This document shows, piece after piece, positions 28,565 to 56,294 of a stretch of 64,000 nt of DNA. The notes below the pieces were generated by a model. It searched no databases. It was not told where the DNA came from and saw only the letters and a list, made by a program, of their open reading frames with translations. Numbering within the stretch: the first letter of the stretch is position 1; the number at the start of each line of letters is the position of its first letter. The position numbers and the translations under genes are program-made. This DNA is from Promethearchaeota archaeon. Its GTDB lineage: Archaea; Asgardarchaeota; Heimdallarchaeia; Hodarchaeales; Hodarchaeaceae. The DNA lies in the NCBI GenBank assembly GCA_048938105.1, contig JBHLMN010000009.1, forward strand, positions 160,001-224,000, in the 5' to 3' direction.

Positions 28565-31500
28565 ATGAATATGACTACAGATTTATATAATCAATTAGGG
28601 CTTACAGCAGAAGAGGGTCAAGTCTACACTATTATTGTTTCTAAATCGGTGCGAACGGCCGAAGAAATTATGATATTAGCTAGTGATCTAGATCTTGAAG
28701 CTATTCAAGACGCCTTAGATGGATTAGAAAAAAGAAAATTCATAAGAGTTATCCCAGGAAAGGTGCCACAATACATCGCATTGGCTCCAGCAATCGCTGT
28801 AACTAGTGAAATTGACCTTCAAGTAGAAAGCGAATTAAACCAAATTCAGGAAGAAATCAAAAATCGATGGGAAGAAGGGCAAAAAGAACTAATTAATATA
28901 GTAAGTGATCTCCAGAAAGGGCCAGATTTAGTCTTAAAATCCGAAAAAGAATTTCAATCTCATATTCAGGCTTATTTAGAGCGAATGAAAACTAAAACTA
29001 CTGAAGTTCAACAACAAATCAAAAGTCAAATCTCAAATCAAAACCAGAAAAATTCTGAAAAGCTAGAGAATTTAATTACCGAATTTTCTAACAATTTGGA
29101 AACTGAACTCAATAGAAATACTATTCAACTTGAAGCTGATCTTAAAAATGCTAAAGAATCTCAGGTAGAAGAAAGAAAACAGCACGTTGACAGAATAAAT
29201 GAAATCTATTCAGAAAGAATTGAAAGTTTGAATGCTCTTTCCTCTCAGATGAGGCAAACGATCCAAACACTTCAGAATCAAGTTGTAAATACAACGGAGA
29301 ACTTAAACTCAACCGTTTCAACTATCAACGAACAAATCAACGGAAATATTAAACAAAATAAACTTTCAGGAAGAGATAACCTTAGTTCAATTGGAGGAGA
29401 AATGACCAAAAAAGCTTCTGATAGGTTGGCTATAATCAGGCAACAAATTGAAGCAATACAGACGGAGCTCATTAATCTAGGTGAAGATTCATTAAGATCT
29501 ATCCAGGAAATGGTTCAGGATTTCAGTGAGTGGGCCTCTAAAAGCTCTCTTTCGGTTATAGATTCAGCAAATGAGGCTAGTGAAAATCTTTGGAATAAGT
29601 TACTAGAAATGTTTCATTCATTAGTAGGAATCAGTAATAGACTAGATGAAGCCAAAGAAAAATTAAACTCAGAAAATATAACATTAGTTTTAACTGAAGT
29701 TTTAATGAATGCCAAAGAAGAGTTGATTAGAGGATCAAAGGCATTTAAATCTATTCAGACAAAAGGATTGATGGATATAAACACAGATGTAACCACCCAA
29801 ATATCTTATTTCCAAGAAAAAATAAGCTCTGATATTTCTCAGTTATTTCAAGAATTAGAGGAATCTATTCAAACACAATATAATAAGGGAATAAAAGAGT
29901 TACTAAAATTAGAAGCTGATATCTCTTCCCTCTTGGAAGAAAATGGAACTGTTATTGTGCAAGAAAGCTCAGAGACAATAAAAAAAATAATACAAGATCT
30001 AAAACAACAGACTCAACCATTAGTAGAGTTAAATTCCAATTCTTTCTTGGAAATGATAGAATTAGTGTCTAATACTGAGAAAACGCTTGAAGAGGATTCT
30101 GAATTAAATCTAATTGATATAATAACGGTTATAGACGAATTACACCTAAGAATAAGTGAAACACTTTCTGAAAGAAGTAATAAACTCTCTGAATCTTTGC
30201 AATATCTTCAAAATGTTGCGAATGAGGAATTTTCTTCTTTTGGGTCTTCGGCAAACATGATGCTTGGCCAAATGCAGTCAACGCTAACAGAAAATGTCGC
30301 TGCTAGAACAGAAGAAATCACCCAAAACTTTGATGTCATTAGTCGAGTGTCAGAGGATTTAAACCGAATCTCAAAAAATTCTCAGAATGAAATTTCAAGG
30401 ATTCTTGACCAATTTAAAACTAATATAGAGGCCGGAAATCAAACAATTTCCGAAACATTTGATCAGGATATTTCTAATCTCGCTATGGACGTTACAGAAG
30501 TTAGTGAAGCGGCAAAAAACGAGCAAGAAGAACAAATTATTGCTTCAAAAGAACGATTAAAATCTCTCTCTGAAAAAATAGAGAAATCAACATTGGAACT
30601 GAGTCGTAATATCCCTACTCAACTTGAGGAATACCAAGCAAGACATACTGATGATTTCAACACCTTTGATCGAGCGGTAAAAGCTGAACTCAACAAGATT
30701 AGAACTCGTTTGACTGAAATAAATACTGAGGTTGGTGAAAGATTAAGTAAAAGAGTCAGTCTAGGGAAAGGAGGTTTCCAAGATATCGAGAAGATTGTTA
30801 CTTCTGCAATGAAAGATTTCGAGAGTGCTCAGAAGCGTACAGAAAAGTTGATCGATGATCAGATTAACAACTTCAAGATTTCAAGTGATTCATTTGCTTC
30901 CACAATAAACACGACTTTAAATACACAAAATTTAGAAATTCAGAGGTTAATGGATACTATTGAAGAGGATCTAGTATATTCGATAAATTCTTCTTACAAA
31001 TTGACATTGAAAAATATCTCAGATTTTTCAGATCGAGTAAAAGAGAGATATAACACACGAAAAGCTAATCTTATTGACCAATTAGGGTTTCTTCTCTCGA
31101 CTATTTCAGCTTCACTTGATGAAAGTCTTAAACAAAGTCTTATTAAAGAATTTAATGAGCTAAATACATCCCTAGGACAATTAGATCAAACAAGTCAAGC
31201 TCCACAAGAACTGGAAGCAATTCTTAATGCTGAAGTGGAAAATTTCATCCAAAACCTTCAACTTGCTTTTCAATCTGCAAGTGAGTCTGGAGGAGCACGA
31301 ATTGCAGAAGTAATTAACGAATTTATAATTTCTGAGATAAATAAGACCTTTACTAGTCTCAAAATTCAATCCGACCTTTCTAATCTCAAAGAAGTTATGT
31401 CTTCTCATTGGAAATTGACTTCTCAAAAGGTAAGTTCCATCCTTTCTCAACTCAATGAAGAACTGGACAAAAAATCAAATACATTTCTAGAATCGACAAG

Positions 31501-33181
31501 GAACAACTTGCAAAATGTAATTAAAGTCTTAGAAGAAGCACAAACTCACTTAAAGACGATTATAGATACAAAAATCCAAGCTGTAAATTCGTCTCAAAAA
31601 GAAAAATATCAAGAAATTCCTACTAGTTTAGAGGAAAATGGTAAGGAAATCATTACTAACCTAGACATAACTAATGAAAAACTTCAAGATTCTATGAAAA
31701 CTATTACTGAAACCACTAATGAGTCGATCAAAAAAATCTCCACACAAATTATAGCGACCACAGATGAACAGTTGAATGATATTCGTTCTCTTCTCACTAG
31801 GATTGAGGAAACCTCAGTTCAAGTGGTAACAGATATTAAAGAACAATACAACAATTCAAAAGAAGTTATTGATAACTTAAAGTCCGAGAGCTTAAATCAT
31901 ATCAAGACAATTGAACAACAAGCTTCATCTGAAAGAACAGAGTTTATAGATCAAGTTGAAAAGATTAATATCAGATTGGAAAGCGAAATAAATAGCTTAA
32001 AATCAAAAGTTACTGAATTAGACAAAAATTTCCCACAAAAGAAGACTCAAATGGAGAAAGAGATTCAAAAAGCAATCGAAATATTTAGTTCTAATGTTCA
32101 AGATATTTTTTTAAAAATGCAATCGGATATTAATTCTGGTAAGATTCAATTAAGTCAAAATGTTGACCATTTGTATCAGGATTTTCAAGCTTCTCTTGAA
32201 ACATTTGTCGCAACTGCTCAAAATTTTATTTCATCTTTGAACAGTCGTCATGATTCACTTCTAAACCAAACCAGTGATTTCTTAGATGATAGAGTCACGA
32301 ATAGTATAAATACTTTGGAAATAGAGAAAAAAACCATTACAGACCGCCAACAAATATTATTCAAAGAAATTGATCAAAATCTTACCAGTTTTTCGAACAC
32401 TTATAGTCAAATAATAACTGATAGTATGGAAGTAATCTCAACCAATTTGCAGGAAAACATCACAGAAATTCAGAATATGGTTAATGAAGGGAGTAGTTCT
32501 TATTATGACGACATTGATTCTATACTTACAGAGACTTATTCCTTCTTGGAATTAGAAAGTCAAGAAATATCTAAAATATTAGAACATGATATATTGAATC
32601 TTGTTTCAGAAGTTGATAAAAAGGCAACACAGACACAAGACACAATTTCAAGTGACCTTACACGAATTATTAGAACAATTCCAGAGAAAATTGGCTCAGG
32701 ACTGACAAAAAGCAAAACATTAATGTCATCAATTTCTGATATTCAGAAGATTGCAATGGAAGTCCCAATAGCAAGCGTTGAGGAGACTTATCTCCAAACT
32801 CAACCTGTAGAAAGAGTTATGCTAACTCTCGAAGCAATGTTAAATCGAACGAAAAGTACTATTCAAATTATGGTACCTAAGCTATCGATGATTCCTTGGG
32901 ACTTACTACAACAAGCAGGAACTCGACGACGAATACAGATTCTTACTAATGTCGATTCCCAAGAAACGGCTGCAAAAATTACTCAAGAGCTCGGTAATGT
33001 CCAATTAAAACACTACGAAAACGTGGAAGTCTATGCTTTTGCGAGAGACGGTACAGAAGAGGCTGCGATCGGTTCCGATGATATCAGTGGAGTACAATTG
33101 ATTATTACAACGGACAGTCGCCTTATTGGAGTTCTAAAAGAAATCATACAAGATTTATGGCCCCGAGGAAAAACAGTTTAA
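28565..33181 (+). CDS. Giant protein: TrmB-type winged helix, ~1300-aa hendecad coiled coil, TrmB effector/PLD-like C-terminal domain
   Basis: LGLTAEEGQVY..LEKRKFI..GKVPQYIALAP (TrmB wHTH); 11-residue hydrophobic periodicity; C-terminal MLNRTKSTIQIMVP..RIQILT..FARDGTEEAAIG. Confidence 0.8.
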   Translation: MNMTTDLYNQLGLTAEEGQVYTIIVSKSVRTAEEIMILASDLDLEAIQDALDGLEKRKFIRVIPGKVPQYIALAPAIAVTSEIDLQVESELNQIQEEIKNRWEEGQKELINIVSDLQKGPDLVLKSEKEFQSHIQAYLERMKTKTTEVQQQIKSQISNQNQKNSEKLENLITEFSNNLETELNRNTIQLEADLKNAKESQVEERKQHVDRINEIYSERIESLNALSSQMRQTIQTLQNQVVNTTENLNSTVSTINEQINGNIKQNKLSGRDNLSSIGGEMTKKASDRLAIIRQQIEAIQTELINLGEDSLRSIQEMVQDFSEWASKSSLSVIDSANEASENLWNKLLEMFHSLVGISNRLDEAKEKLNSENITLVLTEVLMNAKEELIRGSKAFKSIQTKGLMDINTDVTTQISYFQEKISSDISQLFQELEESIQTQYNKGIKELLKLEADISSLLEENGTVIVQESSETIKKIIQDLKQQTQPLVELNSNSFLEMIELVSNTEKTLEEDSELNLIDIITVIDELHLRISETLSERSNKLSESLQYLQNVANEEFSSFGSSANMMLGQMQSTLTENVAARTEEITQNFDVISRVSEDLNRISKNSQNEISRILDQFKTNIEAGNQTISETFDQDISNLAMDVTEVSEAAKNEQEEQIIASKERLKSLSEKIEKSTLELSRNIPTQLEEYQARHTDDFNTFDRAVKAELNKIRTRLTEINTEVGERLSKRVSLGKGGFQDIEKIVTSAMKDFESAQKRTEKLIDDQINNFKISSDSFASTINTTLNTQNLEIQRLMDTIEEDLVYSINSSYKLTLKNISDFSDRVKERYNTRKANLIDQLGFLLSTISASLDESLKQSLIKEFNELNTSLGQLDQTSQAPQELEAILNAEVENFIQNLQLAFQSASESGGARIAEVINEFIISEINKTFTSLKIQSDLSNLKEVMSSHWKLTSQKVSSILSQLNEELDKKSNTFLESTRNNLQNVIKVLEEAQTHLKTIIDTKIQAVNSSQKEKYQEIPTSLEENGKEIITNLDITNEKLQDSMKTITETTNESIKKISTQIIATTDEQLNDIRSLLTRIEETSVQVVTDIKEQYNNSKEVIDNLKSESLNHIKTIEQQASSERTEFIDQVEKINIRLESEINSLKSKVTELDKNFPQKKTQMEKEIQKAIEIFSSNVQDIFLKMQSDINSGKIQLSQNVDHLYQDFQASLETFVATAQNFISSLNSRHDSLLNQTSDFLDDRVTNSINTLEIEKKTITDRQQILFKEIDQNLTSFSNTYSQIITDSMEVISTNLQENITEIQNMVNEGSSSYYDDIDSILTETYSFLELESQEISKILEHDILNLVSEVDKKATQTQDTISSDLTRIIRTIPEKIGSGLTKSKTLMSSISDIQKIAMEVPIASVEETYLQTQPVERVMLTLEAMLNRTKSTIQIMVPKLSMIPWDLLQQAGTRRRIQILTNVDSQETAAKITQELGNVQLKHYENVEVYAFARDGTEEAAIGSDDISGVQLIITTDSRLIGVLKEIIQDLWPRGKTV

Positions 33182-48658: not shown

Positions 48659-50815
48659 TCATTTTATGGTTTCTATGATGTCATCCGTGTCTTTTAGAAT
48701 TGTTTTCACGGATGTCACAACATTCTCTGTGTTGGTGGTGACGTTCATTGTAAGCGTTTCAGAGGCAGTATCAATAGCTGTATTTAGTTCTTCAAATTTA
48801 ATATCTAAAGTACGACGCTGATCATCTACTCCCTCACGATGATTCCGATTAGCCTCTAGGAATGAATCAAGACTTTGCTGTTGATCATCAAAGAAACGAG
48901 TAAACTTCTCTTGGAGATTATCTCGATAATTATCAACAATCTCTATATTCTTATTAAGTTCTTTGGTAGCATTAGCTCGGAACTTTGCAATTGAGCTTTT
49001 ATGCTCATCCTCTAATCCTTCAATAAGGTCTTTTGTACTCTGTTCACTGGTTTTTACATTTTCATCTAACTTGTGATGAGTTTCACCGACAATTGATCTA
49101 ATTGAACTCATTCCATCTTGCTCAATAGCAGTTACTTGTTTCCTAAGATCATCAAATGCTGCAGTACTTGTCCTTGTTACTTCAGATTTCTTATCCTCGA
49201 TGTATTCTAGATTTGATTCGATATGATCTTCAGCTGCAGGTGAGATGCTACTAATAGTAGTGACCAATTCACTCTGTTTAGTTCGCAAGGTACTCCGAAT
49301 GTCTGTGAGTGTAGTTTCGATATTTTTTTCCTGACCAGATTGAAGAGTTCTAAATGATTCATTTACAGTATCTCCTAATTGATCAAGTGTACTTGCGTTT
49401 TTGCTAATTGTAACACCGATAATTGTTTCTGTATTATCAAAAAAATCCATCAGAGAAACATCTATATCAGAAGCAGTTTTATCAAACTTAGTCGCTGTAG
49501 TCTCCTTGTATTGAACTATTGATGAATCTATAGCACTGAATCTATCTTCAACAGCATTCATTAAACTAGAATACATATTCTCACGGGTCTTCTTATACTC
49601 ATCGGAGACTTTAGAAATGACTCCTGAGACCTGATCCTCGAGTTGTTTTCCTATACCACCGATTTTATTTAAATTACTTACGAGAAGGCCATCTAAACTC
49701 CCTTTCATCTCCTCACGGGCACTGGTTAATCGAGAAATAAGCGCATCAATTTGATTAAGAATCGAATCTTGGAATTTAGTGAATGAAAGGGTAATATTGT
49801 CAATTTCATTATATAAATTTGTCATAAGCTGGTTTTCTAGGTCTGTTAACATATTAGTCTGGGAGTTTTCATTCGATTCCAAAATATTCTGAAAAGTTTT
49901 AGCAGATGTTTCTTTAATCGTGGAGAGAGCACTTGAATGTTCCTCTTGTACCGATTTCCAATCCTCAATCGCTTCAAGTAATTGGTTCTCAATCCTAGCC
50001 TTAACATCTGACTTTGCTTTTATTACTGCTTCATGAATGGCTTTTTGCATCTCTGTATTGTTGGATTTTTGACTTGTAAGACTTTCTTCAAGATTGTTCA
50101 TCACCCCATCGATACCTGCTAATAAATCTTCTTTAGCCATCTCTAACCGCCCCACAGAGTCACTGACGGTGCCTGCAAAGATTGCATCGACATTAGTTTC
50201 TTTGGAGTCACTAAGGTCTCTAATTTTAGCTCGAAACTCATTTAATGATTCTATAAATGAGGAGGCAATACTCTCAGTCATTTCTCGTTGATTAGCACTT
50301 TCACTTTCAACTGTACTGACAATGTCACGTTGTATCTGTGATAATTTATTAGAAATAGAATCTTCAAATTCAGAGATTTGATCCCGTTGAGTAGAATAAA
50401 TATCACTCAAACCAGTGTTGACTTTTCCCGCCATTTGAGAATAAATAGAAGAGACATCTTCTTCCTGTTGTGTTGATAAATTAATCATTGCTTTCTGAAG
50501 TGTCTGAACACCAGAACTGATTTGTCCTAATAAATTGTTCAAGCGGTCGTTTAATGCAGCTTTATCTGAAAGTAGGGTTTTTTTCTTATAATCCTCTAAT
50601 TCTCTTGTAAAATTATCGATACTATTCATTAAAATGTTGATTTCAGAAAGAGTACTATCCTTGGATTTGGCTAAACTGTTAGTAAAACTTTCCAATGCCT
50701 TTTTACTTTCTTTTCCAAAATCAAGAATCCTTTTCTGAAGTTGACTATTTTCACTTTCAATTTTTGCTTTATGGTCTTTTATTCTACTAATTTTTTCATC
50801 CTGTTCTGTACTCAT
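48659..50815 (-). CDS. All-helical hendecad coiled-coil protein (718 aa from ATG 50815; 721 aa in the ORF track)
   Basis: About 57 consecutive in-register 11-mers, one proline; GGGTGA RBS before ATG 50815. Confidence 0.85.
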   Translation of the reverse strand: MSTEQDEKISRIKDHKAKIESENSQLQKRILDFGKESKKALESFTNSLAKSKDSTLSEINILMNSIDNFTRELEDYKKKTLLSDKAALNDRLNNLLGQISSGVQTLQKAMINLSTQQEEDVSSIYSQMAGKVNTGLSDIYSTQRDQISEFEDSISNKLSQIQRDIVSTVESESANQREMTESIASSFIESLNEFRAKIRDLSDSKETNVDAIFAGTVSDSVGRLEMAKEDLLAGIDGVMNNLEESLTSQKSNNTEMQKAIHEAVIKAKSDVKARIENQLLEAIEDWKSVQEEHSSALSTIKETSAKTFQNILESNENSQTNMLTDLENQLMTNLYNEIDNITLSFTKFQDSILNQIDALISRLTSAREEMKGSLDGLLVSNLNKIGGIGKQLEDQVSGVISKVSDEYKKTRENMYSSLMNAVEDRFSAIDSSIVQYKETTATKFDKTASDIDVSLMDFFDNTETIIGVTISKNASTLDQLGDTVNESFRTLQSGQEKNIETTLTDIRSTLRTKQSELVTTISSISPAAEDHIESNLEYIEDKKSEVTRTSTAAFDDLRKQVTAIEQDGMSSIRSIVGETHHKLDENVKTSEQSTKDLIEGLEDEHKSSIAKFRANATKELNKNIEIVDNYRDNLQEKFTRFFDDQQQSLDSFLEANRNHREGVDDQRRTLDIKFEELNTAIDTASETLTMNVTTNTENVVTSVKTILKDTDDIIETIK

Positions 50816-50827
50816 AATTCTCACCCG

Positions 50828-52558
50828 TTAAATATTGGTTTCGGGAGAAGTCTCCACCGATTTAGGTGTTGTACTTTTTAACAGATTTTTAAAGAATTTA
50901 GCTTGTGTAACGGAAGAATAAGTTTTAATAGCTTTATTTGCTGCATCTGTGGCTGAATTAATATCATCTGCTCCTTCAAACAGTTTGAAAGCATGGTAAT
51001 ATGATGATCGGGCCAATTCCAATTGTTTCTGCTTATCATATCTTTCCGCATTTTGCAGATACAGCATTGCCGTACGTTGGCTGATATCTTTACGTTTCCG
51101 CTCATTCTTAACAAGACGATAAGATTCGATACTTTTTCGATAAAGAGCCACTGTATACGGGGTCTTTTCCTGATTGTAAAACTCTTGGGCACATTCTTCA
51201 AAGAAAATCCCGCTACCCTCCGTATCTTTCGCCATTCGTAAAAAATTACCTGTTAATAATGCTAAACGATATGCTTCATAGAATTTCCTGGCCTCAAAAG
51301 CACTTTGGTAAAGAGACTTTGTTCGGTTAGGGATAGATTTGTCTTCCAGCCTCTCTGTTGAGTATGATGCTTGTTCTAACCGTTCTAGAACCTTTGGATT
51401 TATTTCAAATCCCATCATCATATCTGCTTCGAGAATCTGTAATAATAAACTAGCTTCAGCCTTCAAATCTACAACTGAAAGTCCAGAACCTAAAAGAGAA
51501 AACATGGCATAACTTGAAAATTGGTAGTAATCACCTAGTTTTATGATTAAACCTTTAGTTTCTAACTTATTAATAGCCTCTTTTGGAGTTCTTGCTGAGT
51601 CAAATGTATCCTGTGGAATAGCATTTCGAGGAGAGCTTAACATTACTTGAAGTACGAGGTTTTCTTCTTCATCAATTTTATATACATCCTGAAGAAATGC
51701 GCGGAGAGCAAAAGTACGAATGAAGGATTGAGCTATTTCTTGGATTGAGCTCTCACTTTCATCCAATCCTTCTCGTTCAATTTTATCTTCAGCCCATCGT
51801 ACGACATCTACGATGAAAACAAGGTTAAATGGTGAACGATCGCTTTGTTTCACAAGTTCATCACGCAATTGACTACTGCTTTGCAATTTTCCGTGAGCAA
51901 TTTTTGAAAGAAGAAGTTTTGAGTCAGAAAAATCTAATCTGTCCAATACAAAGTGCTCACTAATTTGGACAAGCTCTTTAATCTCGTTTAAGTTATACTC
52001 TTGGATTGTACCAATAAATAATAACTGTGGAAACCTGCTTTGAAGAACTTTTAGCAGGTCTACTAACCCATCAATGACATATTTTTGTCCAGAATCCAAT
52101 ATCCGGTCAAGAGGATCTAATGCAATTACGATTGGAGATTTAGGGGGACGAGCAGTTAAATTATTCGAAAAATTGCCGATTATTTCAGACATTTTAGATT
52201 TCGGAGAAAATAATTTTATCTCCTCTTCCCTTGATTTCTTAAGGAAACCCTTCTTTTCTTCTGTTAAATGAGGTGAAATTACTTGATAAACATCACGGAA
52301 TAAGTTGCGATTCATTTTCCCGCCCATTCCGATTGAAACTTGACCAAAAGCCATCATCTCATTTCTAATGATCTCAGCAAATACATTCAGTAAGCTGGTT
52401 TTCCCAATACCTGGTGATCCTGAAATGAGAACAAAATTTTCCTTTAGTTTTTTTTCTTTAAAATCGGACAATATCGTTTCAAAGCGTTTCTCGTAACTTC
52501 GACGACCAACGACTAAATGGGGCTCACATGGCTTTAAAAAACTATCATAAGGACACAT
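50828..52558 (-). CDS. STAND/AAA_16-like P-loop ATPase with winged helix and C-terminal TPR/SNAP-like helical repeats
   Basis: VVGRR, GSPGIGKTS, IALDPLD, SPFNL, LETKGLI..YYQF, Ala/Tyr-rich helical repeats. Confidence 0.8.
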   Translation of the reverse strand: MCPYDSFLKPCEPHLVVGRRSYEKRFETILSDFKEKKLKENFVLISGSPGIGKTSLLNVFAEIIRNEMMAFGQVSIGMGGKMNRNLFRDVYQVISPHLTEEKKGFLKKSREEEIKLFSPKSKMSEIIGNFSNNLTARPPKSPIVIALDPLDRILDSGQKYVIDGLVDLLKVLQSRFPQLLFIGTIQEYNLNEIKELVQISEHFVLDRLDFSDSKLLLSKIAHGKLQSSSQLRDELVKQSDRSPFNLVFIVDVVRWAEDKIEREGLDESESSIQEIAQSFIRTFALRAFLQDVYKIDEEENLVLQVMLSSPRNAIPQDTFDSARTPKEAINKLETKGLIIKLGDYYQFSSYAMFSLLGSGLSVVDLKAEASLLLQILEADMMMGFEINPKVLERLEQASYSTERLEDKSIPNRTKSLYQSAFEARKFYEAYRLALLTGNFLRMAKDTEGSGIFFEECAQEFYNQEKTPYTVALYRKSIESYRLVKNERKRKDISQRTAMLYLQNAERYDKQKQLELARSSYYHAFKLFEGADDINSATDAANKAIKTYSSVTQAKFFKNLLKSTTPKSVETSPETNI

Positions 52559-52947: not shown

Positions 52948-55701
52948 ATGAAAGATGGACTTGCCACGTCCTACGAACATCATGACCTTGAAGAAGAAAT
53001 CTATCAATGGTGGGAAAGAGAGGGCTTCTTCAAACCTGATAAACAAATTGAATTGGGATTAGTAGATAGAAAAAAGAGCCCCAGATTTTGTATCACTATT
53101 CCATTACCAAATGTAACGGGAATTTTACATTTAGGTCATGCAGTCACTATATCCATTGAAGATCTCATGACTCGATATGAACGGATGAAACAAAAAGAAG
53201 CATTATTCATACCTGGTACTGATCACGCGGGAATTGCAACACAAAACGTGGTTGAAAGAGAGTTATTAAAGCAAGGAATTAAGAGAAAAGACTTGGGCCG
53301 TGAAAAATTTGTTGAAAAAGTGTGGGAATGGAAGGATATATATCAAGCTCGAATAACAGAACAGTCAAAACGAATGGGAATGAGTAGCGACTGGAACCGT
53401 GAACATTTTACGCTGGATCCAGGTTATGCGGAAGCTGTTCGAGAGGCTTTTTATCGATTATATACCAAAGGCTTGATTTATAGAGGAGAATACATGATAA
53501 ATTGGTGTCCTCGGTGTGAATCCGCTATTTCTGATCTAGAAACTGAATCTGAGGAAAAAGCAAGCCACTTATGGTATATCAAATATCCAATTGTAGGTGA
53601 GAGTTGGGAAAAACCCATTCATGAATGGGGAAGCGGAAAGTGGGCCGAAGGCGCATCAGATTTCATTGTAGTAGCTACAACTCGGCCTGAGACTCTTTTA
53701 GGGGATACAGCTGTTGCCATAGCAGCAGATCATAAGGAATATGGAAAATTTGTTACTAAGAAAGCTATCCTACCTGTAAATGCTCGAGAGATTCCAATAC
53801 TCGTTGATGATTATGTAGATCCTGAATTTGGAACAGGAGCATTAAAAATTACCCCTGGCCATGATCCTAATGACTTCGAAATTGGCCAAAAACACAATTT
53901 AGAAGTAATAACTGTTCTAGATGAAGCAGTAACTATGCTTCCTGAATATTCAGGTCCTTATGCTGGAATGGACCGATTTGAATGTCGGGAAGCAATTGTT
54001 AAAGATTTAGAAAAAGAAGGGTTATTGGAAAAAATCGAACCCTATCTTCATCAAGAACCTTATTGTCAAAGATGTCACACTTTAGTTGAACCAAGAATTT
54101 CTATTCAATGGTTTGTCAGAACCAAACCTCTAGCAGAAGCAGCTATGGCCAAAGTCCGAAAGAAAAAAACAATAATTATTCCTAAAAGGGAAGAAAAGAG
54201 ATTTTTCCAATGGATGGAGAATATTCATGATTGGTGCATAAGTAGACAACTTTGGTGGGGGCATAGGATACCAATATGGTATTGTACTGATTGTTCTGAA
54301 GAGATCTGTCCTCCTCCAGATATAGATGCCCCTCAAAAATGTCCAAAATGTAGTAGTAGCAATTTGACACAAGAAGAAGATGTTTTAGATACATGGTTTT
54401 CGAGTGGGTTATGGCCCTATGCAACACTGGGTTGGCCAAATATTAAGAGTGTAGATTATCAACGATTTTACCCCACAAGCACTCGTGAAACAGGTTATGA
54501 CATTTTATTTTTTTGGGTCGCCAGAGAAATGATGTTAGGGATTGAACTGACAGGGAAGGTACCTTATGAGACAGTCTATCTCCATGGGCTCATTCGAGAT
54601 GAGAGAGGTAGGAAGATTAGTAAGTCTATGGAGGATGTCGATAAATATGATCCATTACATATCATATCTGAACATGGAGCCGATTCATTACGATATGTTC
54701 TAATATCTAATAGTATTCCTGGTATAGACACAAATCTAGATCCAAGACAACTGGATAGTGCTCATCACTTTCTAAATAAAATTTGGCAATCAACTCGTTT
54801 TGTACTCAATAATATCCAAAAAGATGAAAAAATCCAAAAAATAAATGAAATCAAGAATGAAGACTTCAGTATTCCTGATAAATGGATTTTATCCCGATTA
54901 AATCAACTTGTAAGAACAGTTTCAGAATGTATGGAGTCATTTGATTACCTAGGGGCCTCACGCGAAATTAAGAACTTCTATTGGAATGAATTCTGTGACT
55001 GGTACATTGAAATATCTAAAATTCGTCTATATAGTGAAAATGAAGAAGAGAAGATCATTCCTAAAGCTATTTTGGTCCATATTTTAGATATTACATTTAA
55101 ATTACTACACCCGATTATTCCGTTTATTACTGAAAAATTATGGCAGAATCTACCTGCTAATATTAGAAGTGGACCAGCATTAATTGTTGCTAAATGGCCA
55201 GAATATGCTGATACGTTCATTGATGAAAAACTGGAGGAGGAGTTCCAGTTCACAACAGACTTAGTTCATGAAATAAGGCGCATTAGGGCTGTCTTTAACG
55301 TTGGATTAAGTAAAAAAATCCCCCTACAAATAAAAACAGGTGAAAATATCAATTCATTCGAAAAAACAAGAAGAGAAATAATTGCTTTAGCGAAAATCGA
55401 TCCCTCGAAAATTACAGTTTCATCTGAAGTAGAACCACCAAAACGAGCTGCTCGAGTTGTCATACCTGGTTTAACTGCATACATTCCTCTAGAAGAATTA
55501 ATTGACCTAGAAAAAGAGAAGAGAAAAGTAGAAAAACAATTAACCAAAGTTAAAAAGAATATAGAACAGAAATCTAGAAAATTAAAAGGCCCCTTTGCGC
55601 ACAAAGCACCTCCTGAGATCGTAGAAAAAGAAGAAGAGAAATTGGCAGAATTAAGAAGTAAAAAATCTCAATTAAAAGAACAATTAGAGATATTAACATA
55701 A
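52948..55701 (+). CDS. valS: Valine--tRNA ligase, bacterial type with C-terminal coiled-coil arm
   Basis: PNVTGILHLGH, GTDHAGIATQ, ATTRPET, DWCISRQLWWGHRIP, KISKS, LIDLEKE..KAPPEIVEKE. Confidence 0.96.
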   Translation: MKDGLATSYEHHDLEEEIYQWWEREGFFKPDKQIELGLVDRKKSPRFCITIPLPNVTGILHLGHAVTISIEDLMTRYERMKQKEALFIPGTDHAGIATQNVVERELLKQGIKRKDLGREKFVEKVWEWKDIYQARITEQSKRMGMSSDWNREHFTLDPGYAEAVREAFYRLYTKGLIYRGEYMINWCPRCESAISDLETESEEKASHLWYIKYPIVGESWEKPIHEWGSGKWAEGASDFIVVATTRPETLLGDTAVAIAADHKEYGKFVTKKAILPVNAREIPILVDDYVDPEFGTGALKITPGHDPNDFEIGQKHNLEVITVLDEAVTMLPEYSGPYAGMDRFECREAIVKDLEKEGLLEKIEPYLHQEPYCQRCHTLVEPRISIQWFVRTKPLAEAAMAKVRKKKTIIIPKREEKRFFQWMENIHDWCISRQLWWGHRIPIWYCTDCSEEICPPPDIDAPQKCPKCSSSNLTQEEDVLDTWFSSGLWPYATLGWPNIKSVDYQRFYPTSTRETGYDILFFWVAREMMLGIELTGKVPYETVYLHGLIRDERGRKISKSMEDVDKYDPLHIISEHGADSLRYVLISNSIPGIDTNLDPRQLDSAHHFLNKIWQSTRFVLNNIQKDEKIQKINEIKNEDFSIPDKWILSRLNQLVRTVSECMESFDYLGASREIKNFYWNEFCDWYIEISKIRLYSENEEEKIIPKAILVHILDITFKLLHPIIPFITEKLWQNLPANIRSGPALIVAKWPEYADTFIDEKLEEEFQFTTDLVHEIRRIRAVFNVGLSKKIPLQIKTGENINSFEKTRREIIALAKIDPSKITVSSEVEPPKRAARVVIPGLTAYIPLEELIDLEKEKRKVEKQLTKVKKNIEQKSRKLKGPFAHKAPPEIVEKEEEKLAELRSKKSQLKEQLEILT

Positions 55702-55831: not shown

Positions 55832-56294
55832 ATGTCGCAAAATTACTGTTATAATTTTGTGTGCTATTCTGATCGCTTAGTTGATTTATTAATACATAAT
55901 AAAATCACTCCTGTTGTGAATCAGGTTGAAACGCATCCCTTTTGCCAACAGATTGAAAGTGCTAGAATAATGAAAGAAAATGACGTTCAAATAGAATCAT
56001 GGGCTCCACTTGCAGAAGGTAAAAGTAATATCTTCCAAAATGAACTATTACAGACGATTGATGATAAATATGAAAAAACAGTTGTCCAGGTTATTTTACG
56101 TTGGTTGATACAAAGAGAAATTATTGTGATTCCGAAATCAATTCATAAAAAACGGATTATTGAAAATATTAGTTTTTTTAGCCAGTGAAGATATGAATCA
56201 AATCTCAACATTAGATACGAAAAAATCTTGTTTCCTCTCACATCGTGATCCAAAAGTAGTAAAATTGATTGGAAAACTAAAACGAGATATTTAG
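55832..56294 (+). pseudogene. Aldo/keto reductase (2,5-DKG reductase-like) 3' remnant, 5'-truncated and frameshifted
   Basis: DRLVDL..PVVNQVETHPF..ESWAPLAEG..VIPKS; after a shift near 56175 continues SEDMNQISTLDTKKSCFLSHRDPKVVK to TAG 56294; N-terminal catalytic half missing. Confidence 0.8.

Follow-up and report, generated by a model that had tools for sequence, protein, structure and literature searches.

A hendecad rod of conserved length encoded beside a STAND-type ATPase in Hodarchaeales: a candidate fold-back hairpin in an Asgard gene module

Coiled-coil rods whose chain folds back on itself and STAND ATPases that act as switches are both known kinds of protein, and they are the closest described counterparts of the locus analyzed here. 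In the arms of SMC, Rad50 and MukB, one chain is folded at its middle into an antiparallel two-helix rod of about 50 nm, with matched arms and a possible elbow, all of which would recur in our proposed model of the protein in question. The model also resembles the cytoplasmic signalling domain of methyl-accepting chemotaxis proteins (MCPs), a helical hairpin for which Alexander and Zhulin reportedly defined, in 2007, heptad classes with length changes symmetric about the hairpin tip. STAND ATPases, in turn, generally work through nucleotide-dependent oligomerisation. In this study, we examined a window of 64,000 nucleotides (the whole stretch of DNA analyzed) from a Promethearchaeota archaeon of the family Hodarchaeaceae, order Hodarchaeales (assembly GCA_048938105.1, contig JBHLMN010000009.1, positions 160,001 to 224,000 of the forward strand), and focused on a minus-strand gene for a 718-aa hendecad protein, hereafter the rod, and on the ATPase gene directly upstream of it. 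Eukaryotes have some of their closest known relatives among the Asgard archaea, notably in Hodarchaeales.

On balance, and taking its parts jointly, we favour a reading in which the rod takes the middle place in a gene module found across Asgard archaea and consisting of a STAND/TPR ATPase, a hendecad rod and a TrmB-headed giant rod, and in which the rod would fold into a hairpin and contribute to a nucleotide-switched scaffold linked to DNA. The parts of this reading differ in strength and are graded below, each beside the evidence that bears on it.

Hendecad periodicity and conserved length of the rod

The original prediction, made from the letters of this stretch, described a protein of 57 consecutive 11-residue repeats with hydrophobic residues mostly at positions 1, 4/5 and 8, one Pro, no internal sequence repeats and neither a transmembrane segment nor a globular domain. 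These observations are confirmed on every point. Across the whole protein, the hydrophobic periodicity has a single dominant peak at 3.66 residues (11/3 = 3.667), with a power of 75.7 for binary hydrophobicity and 53.7 for Kyte-Doolittle values, whereas in 200 shuffles of the sequence the maximum averaged 6.8 and never exceeded 10.1. From FGKESKKALES (residue 36 of the 721-aa open reading frame, ORF) to LDSFLEANRNH (residue 662 of the ORF) there are 627 residues, i.e., exactly 57 rows of 11 in one register. Within these rows, hydrophobic residues make up a fraction of 0.64 at position 1, 0.36 at position 4, 0.66 at position 5, 0.48 at position 8 and 0.32 at position 9, as compared with no more than 0.12 at each of positions 3, 6, 7, 10 and 11. 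The register is present already from about residue 3, and about 60 hendecads share it, which, to our knowledge, would place the rod among the longest unbroken hendecad runs. Averaged over 27 relatives, the hydrophobic fraction reaches 0.73 at position a, 0.72 at e, 0.55 at h, 0.34 at d and 0.29 at i, and the family-averaged 11/3 phase stays within 2.5-3.0 residues over residues 40-650, with drift in the last ~60 residues. In coiled coils, an exact 11/3 repeat gives straight or slightly right-handed helix packing, and the helices of the rod should therefore pack without left-handed supercoiling.

Residues are numbered here on the 718-aa protein unless the 721-aa ORF is stated. The ORF itself (48659-50824, minus strand) comprises 721 codons from a GTG at 50824, and this GTG sits within a GGGTGA motif. 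The true start is probably the ATG at 50815, because the 718-aa relatives (15 of the 27 aligned) begin at its Met and because GGGTGA lies 5 nt upstream of it (Table 1).

Self-comparison of the rod by BLASTP shows no off-diagonal match, the rod contains no hydrophobic segment and only a single Pro, no Pfam family is matched at its cut-off, and AlphaFold 2 (AF2) models the chain as helical over residues 2-717. The best Pfam match, Apolipoprotein A1/A4/E (E 4.9e-09), and the nearest ESM Atlas clusters, which are labelled apolipoprotein or apolipophorin and score below 0.9, would suit an amphipathic helix of the apolipoprotein, perilipin or synuclein type lying on a lipid or membrane surface. A bundle opening onto lipid would also keep its register unbroken across loops, as the rod does, and the middle of the polar face is slightly richer in acidic residues. 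Nevertheless, a membrane or lipid-droplet coat, one of the functions suggested in the original prediction, is not favoured and appears very unlikely: the Pfam match scores 36.6 bits against a gathering threshold of 90, there is one Pro and no Pro-punctuated 22-mer, core positions a, e and h are occupied by bulky I/L/F of the kind seen in coiled coils, the protein has a net charge of -44, no K/R excess is found at the edge of the hydrophobic face, and the conserved partners, described below, are an ATPase and a DNA-binding protein rather than lipid enzymes.

A word-indexed search of 5.8 billion proteins returned 40 relatives of the rod, and all those with a named source belong to Hodarchaeales/Hodarchaeota or to other Asgard-labelled metagenome bins. 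They measure 717-723 aa as far down as 46% identity, with an additional group of 661-667 aa. An exhaustive HMMER search added further relatives at 17-22% identity, which are again 711-731 aa long and of which the named one is from Hodarchaeales. Length among orthologues, a check that had been proposed along with the original prediction, is thus strictly conserved. The sole large indel in the 27-sequence alignment measures exactly 55 residues (five hendecads), spans residues ~335-389 and is centred on residue 362, and the other differences are three one-residue internal indels (columns 13, 87 and 445) and short ones at both ends. Among same-class whole genomes, the rod profile finds 15 of the 20 other genomes of the same genus, both of the sister-family genomes and almost nothing else, and no paralogue is found at E<=10 in the genome of the window itself. 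One genome (G065) encodes a 718-aa and a 665-aa rod together, so the two forms are paralogous there. The short paralogues (661-664 aa; L023 6088-8073 (-) and L027 5362-7356 (-)) lack exactly the 55 residues at the predicted tip. A second clade, from another family of the same class (14 genomes), has rods of 479-487 aa that are 35-92% identical, contain no internal indel and display a strong 11/3 peak (power 42-49).

The STAND-type ATPase and the three-gene module

The TAA stop codon of the ATPase gene (50830-50828) is separated from the rod ATG by 12 nt. The ATPase matches Pfam AAA_16 at 35.2 bits (cut-off 32.6), with weak matches to nSTAND3, NACHT, KAP and archaeal ATPase_2. Its AF2 model has a mean predicted local distance difference test score (pLDDT) of 82.3 and comprises an NTPase domain of the alpha/beta type, a helical region that contains a small beta hairpin, and eight repeat helices at the C terminus. 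The best Foldseek match to this model is 6mfv, a STAND ATPase with TPR (E 5.6e-08, probability 1.00, 15% identity), followed by the archaeal AAA+ protein sso1545, the NLRP3 NACHT domain, Avs5/Avs3, CED-4 and ORC/Cdc6, all with probability 1.00. As modelled, therefore, the protein has the layout of STAND ATPases, namely a P-loop NOD, a helical/winged-helix region and a repeat sensor domain. A sequence search of the PDB with the ATPase returned P-loop matches only.

The ATPase and the rod are closely linked. Relatives of the ATPase have a distribution as narrow as that of the rod and lie on the same contigs as rod relatives, and in all 6 examined contigs with a 718-722-aa rod the ATPase gene is directly upstream on the same strand. 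One of the six is a sister-family contig, in which identity to the proteins of the window is 21% for the rod and 29% for the ATPase. Where rods are 70-75% identical, the ATPases are 78-80% and the valyl-tRNA synthetases 76-80% identical. By these sequence comparisons, the rod appears constrained almost like an enzyme, which is unusually tight for a coiled coil.

The gene for valyl-tRNA synthetase, valS (52948-55701 (+)), is divergent and upstream of the ATPase gene, across a 389-nt AT-rich spacer, and the neighbourhood of valS, ATPase, rod, NUDIX or methyltransferase, and GNAT genes is kept in close relatives. In one ATPase homologue (G062:C1:9510-11195 (+), L037), an otherwise full-length match contains one in-frame TAG, which could be a sequencing error, a sign of a pseudogene or a recoded codon.

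The matches of the ATPase model to Avs3, Avs5 and the NACHT domains of NLR proteins, together with sub-threshold matches of the rod to the PADLOC profiles of ZorA, LmuB and JetC, raise the question of anti-virus defence, in which the pair would consist of an Avs-like STAND sensor and a rod that, by analogy with the ZorA tail, serves as effector or signal transmitter. However, the rod matches only the coiled-coil parts of these profiles and does so far below cut-off (29.2 vs 190 bits for NF033914), and the pair carries no nuclease, protease, TIR, SIR2 or membrane domain, as judged from Pfam and the AF2 model. Furthermore, the pair is present in a single copy, at a fixed place beside valS in close relatives, in many Asgard families and with matching divergence, and therefore looks vertically inherited rather than part of a defence island. 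We regard a defence function as the least probable of the readings considered here.

With an ATPase profile, homologues were found in 46 of 300 sampled Asgard genomes from many families, in open frames of 550-610 aa. At all nine loci examined, the ATPase gene is followed directly by a gene for a protein of 425-770 aa with an 11/3 power of 30-106, and at eight of them a hendecad-rich giant protein (1126-1806 aa) comes next, the ninth contig ending just after the rod. Comparison by phmmer with proteins of the window bears on homology across these loci. All nine ATPases match that of the window (E 1.8e-35 to 5.9e-11), and all eight giant proteins match a 1538-aa protein encoded elsewhere in the window (E 1.6e-23 to 1e-06). 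The window rod matches four of the nine middle-gene rods (E 6e-09, 3e-08, 2e-06 and 2e-04; range 6.3e-09 to 1.6e-04), and the others are tied to it only by position, periodicity and a homologous ATPase.

The 1538-aa protein (28565-33181 (+)) has a TrmB head (Pfam, 28 bits; cut-off 25.6) on a long hendecad shaft. In this genus it is unlinked from the pair: it lies 15.5 kb away on the opposite strand in the window, and ~8 kb away in the complete genome of a relative (G058). Judged by the gene order elsewhere (ATPase, then rod, then giant rod), the operon has been split in this genus, with its third gene now outside it. Here the rod of the module is 718 aa long, as opposed to 425-505 aa in most other lineages.

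Three relations between the two rods were considered and rejected. BLASTP of the rod against the TrmB-headed rod of the window gives no significant similarity (best E 0.043), which rules out the rod as a copy of the shaft. The rod as a length-matched partner lying along a TrmB hairpin was discarded, as the paired lengths across lineages (rod/TrmB rod: 770/1176, 479/1440, 425/1453, 485/1484, 487/1256, 767/1806, 440/1476 and 718/1538) show no consistent relation. Charge complementarity fails as well, both proteins being acidic.

Two further proteins were noted in connection with the module. A much shorter TrmB-headed protein with an open frame of 727-728 aa (G058:C1:3187110-3189251 (-) and G063:C3:11311-13449 (+)) aligns at 33-37% identity with three parts of the 1538-aa rod, namely its head, a middle piece and its C-terminal domain, and looks like a short-shaft paralogue of it. 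Near the three-gene operon of another Asgard genome, a 1117-aa protein (L065 114-3467 (+)) gives a strong heptad signal at 3.5 (power 22.5) and none for hendecads, and represents another type of coiled coil.

Mirror symmetry, predicted fold and proposed mechanism

With the 27-sequence alignment, AF2 predicts the rod as four helices separated by three breaks (Table 1), with a mean pLDDT of 75.9 and a predicted template modelling score (pTM) of 0.28. The outer breaks are symmetric about the centre (362-209=153; 520-362=158). Foldseek of the model against the PDB gives nothing at E<=0.001, generic long coiled coils only. The conservation profile offers a separate view of the same geometry. When the smoothed profile is correlated with its own mirror image (position i versus c2-i), there is a sharp maximum at centre 364, with r 0.70. 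The peak lies at 362.5 (r 0.75) when only long forms are used and at 363-364 (r 0.72) when residues 330-395 are left out, so it is not made by the gap; the best r at centres more than 15 residues away is 0.38-0.42. For short forms alone, it falls at 338 in their own numbering, as compared with ~336 predicted for a symmetric deletion at the tip. Matching conservation peaks face each other across the fold (117-143/575-606, 194-242/480-528 and 162-172/554-568). The two most conserved blocks, around AKEDLLAGIDG (227-237) and around 492-528, the latter including the invariant Pro, are located at the outer AF2 breaks, and the invariant residues within them are in many cases on the surface of the hendecad. 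Conserved blocks at symmetric positions bear Gly, and the invariant Pro is placed likewise.

The central AF2 break, the centred 55-residue indel and the mirror-symmetric conservation agree, and on these grounds we infer that the chain probably folds back at about residue 363 into an antiparallel two-arm rod with ~350 residues per arm. With i+j ~726, the termini would be flush, and at 0.148 nm per residue the arm would measure ~50 nm. Each hendecad has three strongly hydrophobic core positions (a, e and h), which suggests mainly two-helix packing. In a fold-back rod the arms must match, so that indels are barred unless they are symmetric about the tip, which would explain both the fixed length of 718 aa and the single 55-residue tip deletion. 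The frozen length of the second-clade rods is likewise as a fold-back rod predicts. The conserved joint, with residues ~200-242 facing ~485-528, may be an elbow, a docking site or both.

On this geometry, the following mechanism can be proposed. The N and C halves of the rod would pair antiparallel with flush ends, forming a straight two-arm rod of ~50 nm, and the TPR sensor of the putatively co-transcribed ATPase would bind it, either at the joint or at the flush termini. Nucleotide-driven oligomerisation of the ATPase could then gather or release rods and, together with the DNA-binding TrmB-headed rod, the assembly would act on the nucleoid as a structural scaffold or tether that can be switched. 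We hold this functional part, a nucleotide-switched scaffold linked to DNA, only tentatively. The same doubt applies to its broadest form, in which the ATPase, the 50-nm hairpin and the TrmB rod (arm ~100 nm) would possibly constitute a new, Asgard-specific, rod-based scaffold of chromosome or cell architecture that is switched by nucleotide. A structural protein of frozen length, a switch ATPase and a DNA-binding rod linked to them by ancestry would then form an undescribed piece of this architecture.

Several points weigh against the hairpin and its proposed partnership. The global confidence of AF2 is low, and predictions made for monomers are prone to bending long helices back. The predicted central turn contains neither Gly nor Pro, and the hendecad amplitude is maintained across it. 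By mirror symmetry, an open 50-nm hairpin and a ~30-nm four-helix bundle refolded at the elbow look alike; at centres 209/520, which the refolded bundle predicts too, the mirror r is only 0.2-0.45. In the second clade, the mirror maximum (248.5 of 487, r 0.86) reflects one broad central conservation peak and is thus weaker evidence. As to the partners, no ATPase gene adjoins the 661-667-aa paralogues, whose neighbours are unrelated genes for a radical SAM protein, a glycyl-radical enzyme and an aldo-keto reductase. At E<=1e-8, the ATPase has no match in several of the genomes that carry the short form alone, so the rod may do without it.

Some of these observations would suit a chain that stays unfolded as one ~100-nm helix and assembles in parallel, as a dimer to pentamer, into a filament subunit, ruler or tether, which was the ~90-100 nm option of the original prediction. 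The hendecad register and amplitude run continuously through all three predicted breaks, including the central one, the indel of 55 residues comprises complete hendecads, the best sub-threshold profile matches are to the ZorA tail, a right-handed pentameric coiled coil of ~70 nm, and pTM is low. However, a parallel rod leaves the mirror-symmetric conservation about 363, with its several matching peaks, without a reason. It offers none for the sole indel being centred at 363, and the invariant Pro and the conserved Gly-bearing blocks at symmetric positions also speak against it. Together with the AF2 breaks, these features make a parallel rod unlikely, and we retain the fold-back hairpin as the preferred geometry.

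Table 1. Positions in the window of the rod gene, its predicted parts and its partner genes
Feature	Coordinates	Strand	Basis
Rod gene, 718 aa + stop (probable start)	48659..50815	-	ORF, starts of relatives, Shine-Dalgarno-like motif
57 hendecads in one register, residues 36-662 of the 721-aa ORF	48839..50719	-	Periodicity and phase
Predicted helix 1, residues 2-200, outer part of N arm	50216..50812	-	AF2
Predicted break 1, residues 201-217, elbow on N-arm side	50165..50215	-	AF2, conservation
Most conserved block of N arm, residues 221-242, including AKEDLLAGIDG; mirrors 485-528	50090..50155	-	Conservation
Predicted helix 2, residues 218-358, inner part of N arm	49742..50164	-	AF2
55-residue segment, residues ~335-389, five hendecads, missing in 661-667-aa forms, centred on predicted turn	49649..49813	-	Alignment
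Predicted hairpin turn, residues 359-364, exactly midway along the chain	49724..49741	-	AF2, mirror symmetry
Predicted helix 3, residues 365-513, inner part of C arm	49277..49723	-	AF2
Predicted break 3, residues 514-527, elbow on C-arm side; sole, invariant Pro, in conserved block	49235..49276	-	AF2, conservation
Predicted helix 4, residues 528-717, outer part of C arm; last ~60 residues off register	48665..49234	-	AF2, phase
GGGTGA, Shine-Dalgarno-like, 5 nt before ATG, right after ATPase stop	50821..50826	-	Sequence
Partner ATPase, 576 aa, STAND-type P-loop (AAA_16), winged-helix region, C-terminal TPR-like helical repeats	50828..52558	-	Pfam, AF2/Foldseek
TrmB-headed hendecad rod, 1538 aa, unlinked third member of ancestral module	28565..33181	+	Pfam, phmmer

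Farther along the window, beyond valS, a 118-aa ORF (55832-56188 (+)) matches only positions 148-274 of a 291-position aldo/keto reductase profile and, from its sequence, looks like a 5'-truncated gene remnant.

Comparison with known systems

In the literature on Asgard coiled coils, archaeal hendecads and Asgard structural modelling, we found no description of the rod family or of the module, and the family is not described at the terms searched within PMC12962969. The window adds to the module the 718-aa form of Hodarchaeales, the split of the operon, a short paralogue without an ATPase, and the mirror-symmetry test with its controls. Apart from its cellular role, the rod provides a clean natural model both of straight, non-supercoiled helix packing and of the constraint on indels in fold-back rods.

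The system shares individual traits with several others. Apolipoproteins A1/A4/E, apolipophorin III and perilipin are, like the rod, all-helical with an 11-residue amphipathic periodicity. The rod differs from these proteins in its bulky core of the coiled-coil type, its strongly acidic composition and a gene context unrelated to lipids. With ZorA the likeness concerns the tail, a right-handed pentameric coiled coil of ~70 nm with rings of Leu at residues 250, 254, 258 and 261, a 4-4-3 spacing (PMC11946911). ZorA gives the best PADLOC/NCBIfam profile matches of the rod, on tail positions only, and these are best explained by shared periodicity and composition. ZorA is a membrane MotA-like protein with parallel pentameric tails, whereas the rod has no membrane part. 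In a structure search of the ESM Atlas, the rod retrieves MCP clusters at TM 0.26-0.30, all leads being below 0.9, and it has no match to the MCP signalling family PF00015 (Pfam, E<=0.1). The rod is unlike MCPs in having no transmembrane or HAMP part, in being built of hendecads rather than heptads and in being about twice as long.

The partner ATPase is less unusual, since 6mfv likewise combines a P-loop domain with a helical/winged-helix region and with TPR-like repeats at the C terminus, although we know of no STAND protein described as paired with a hendecad rod. The overall plan would resemble that of SMC, Rad50 and MukB, and the best, non-significant Foldseek rows of the rod are the folded elbow of cohesin, Smc5/6 and MukB. 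These proteins carry halves of an ABC-type ATPase head at the N and C termini, whereas the rod, helical over 2-717, has no P-loop/ABC match in Pfam or NCBIfam, and its ATPase is a separate STAND protein. The rod further differs from them in the continuous hendecads that replace heptads with breaks, in the absence of a hinge domain at the tip and of any sequence similarity. A hairpin rod that is head-less, built purely of hendecads and accompanied by a STAND ATPase and by a rod with a TrmB head appears to be new. If our proposal is true, the resulting scaffold would play a role like that of an SMC complex or a long coiled-coil tether, but its parts would be unrelated to theirs and would follow a hendecad plan in place of a heptad one.

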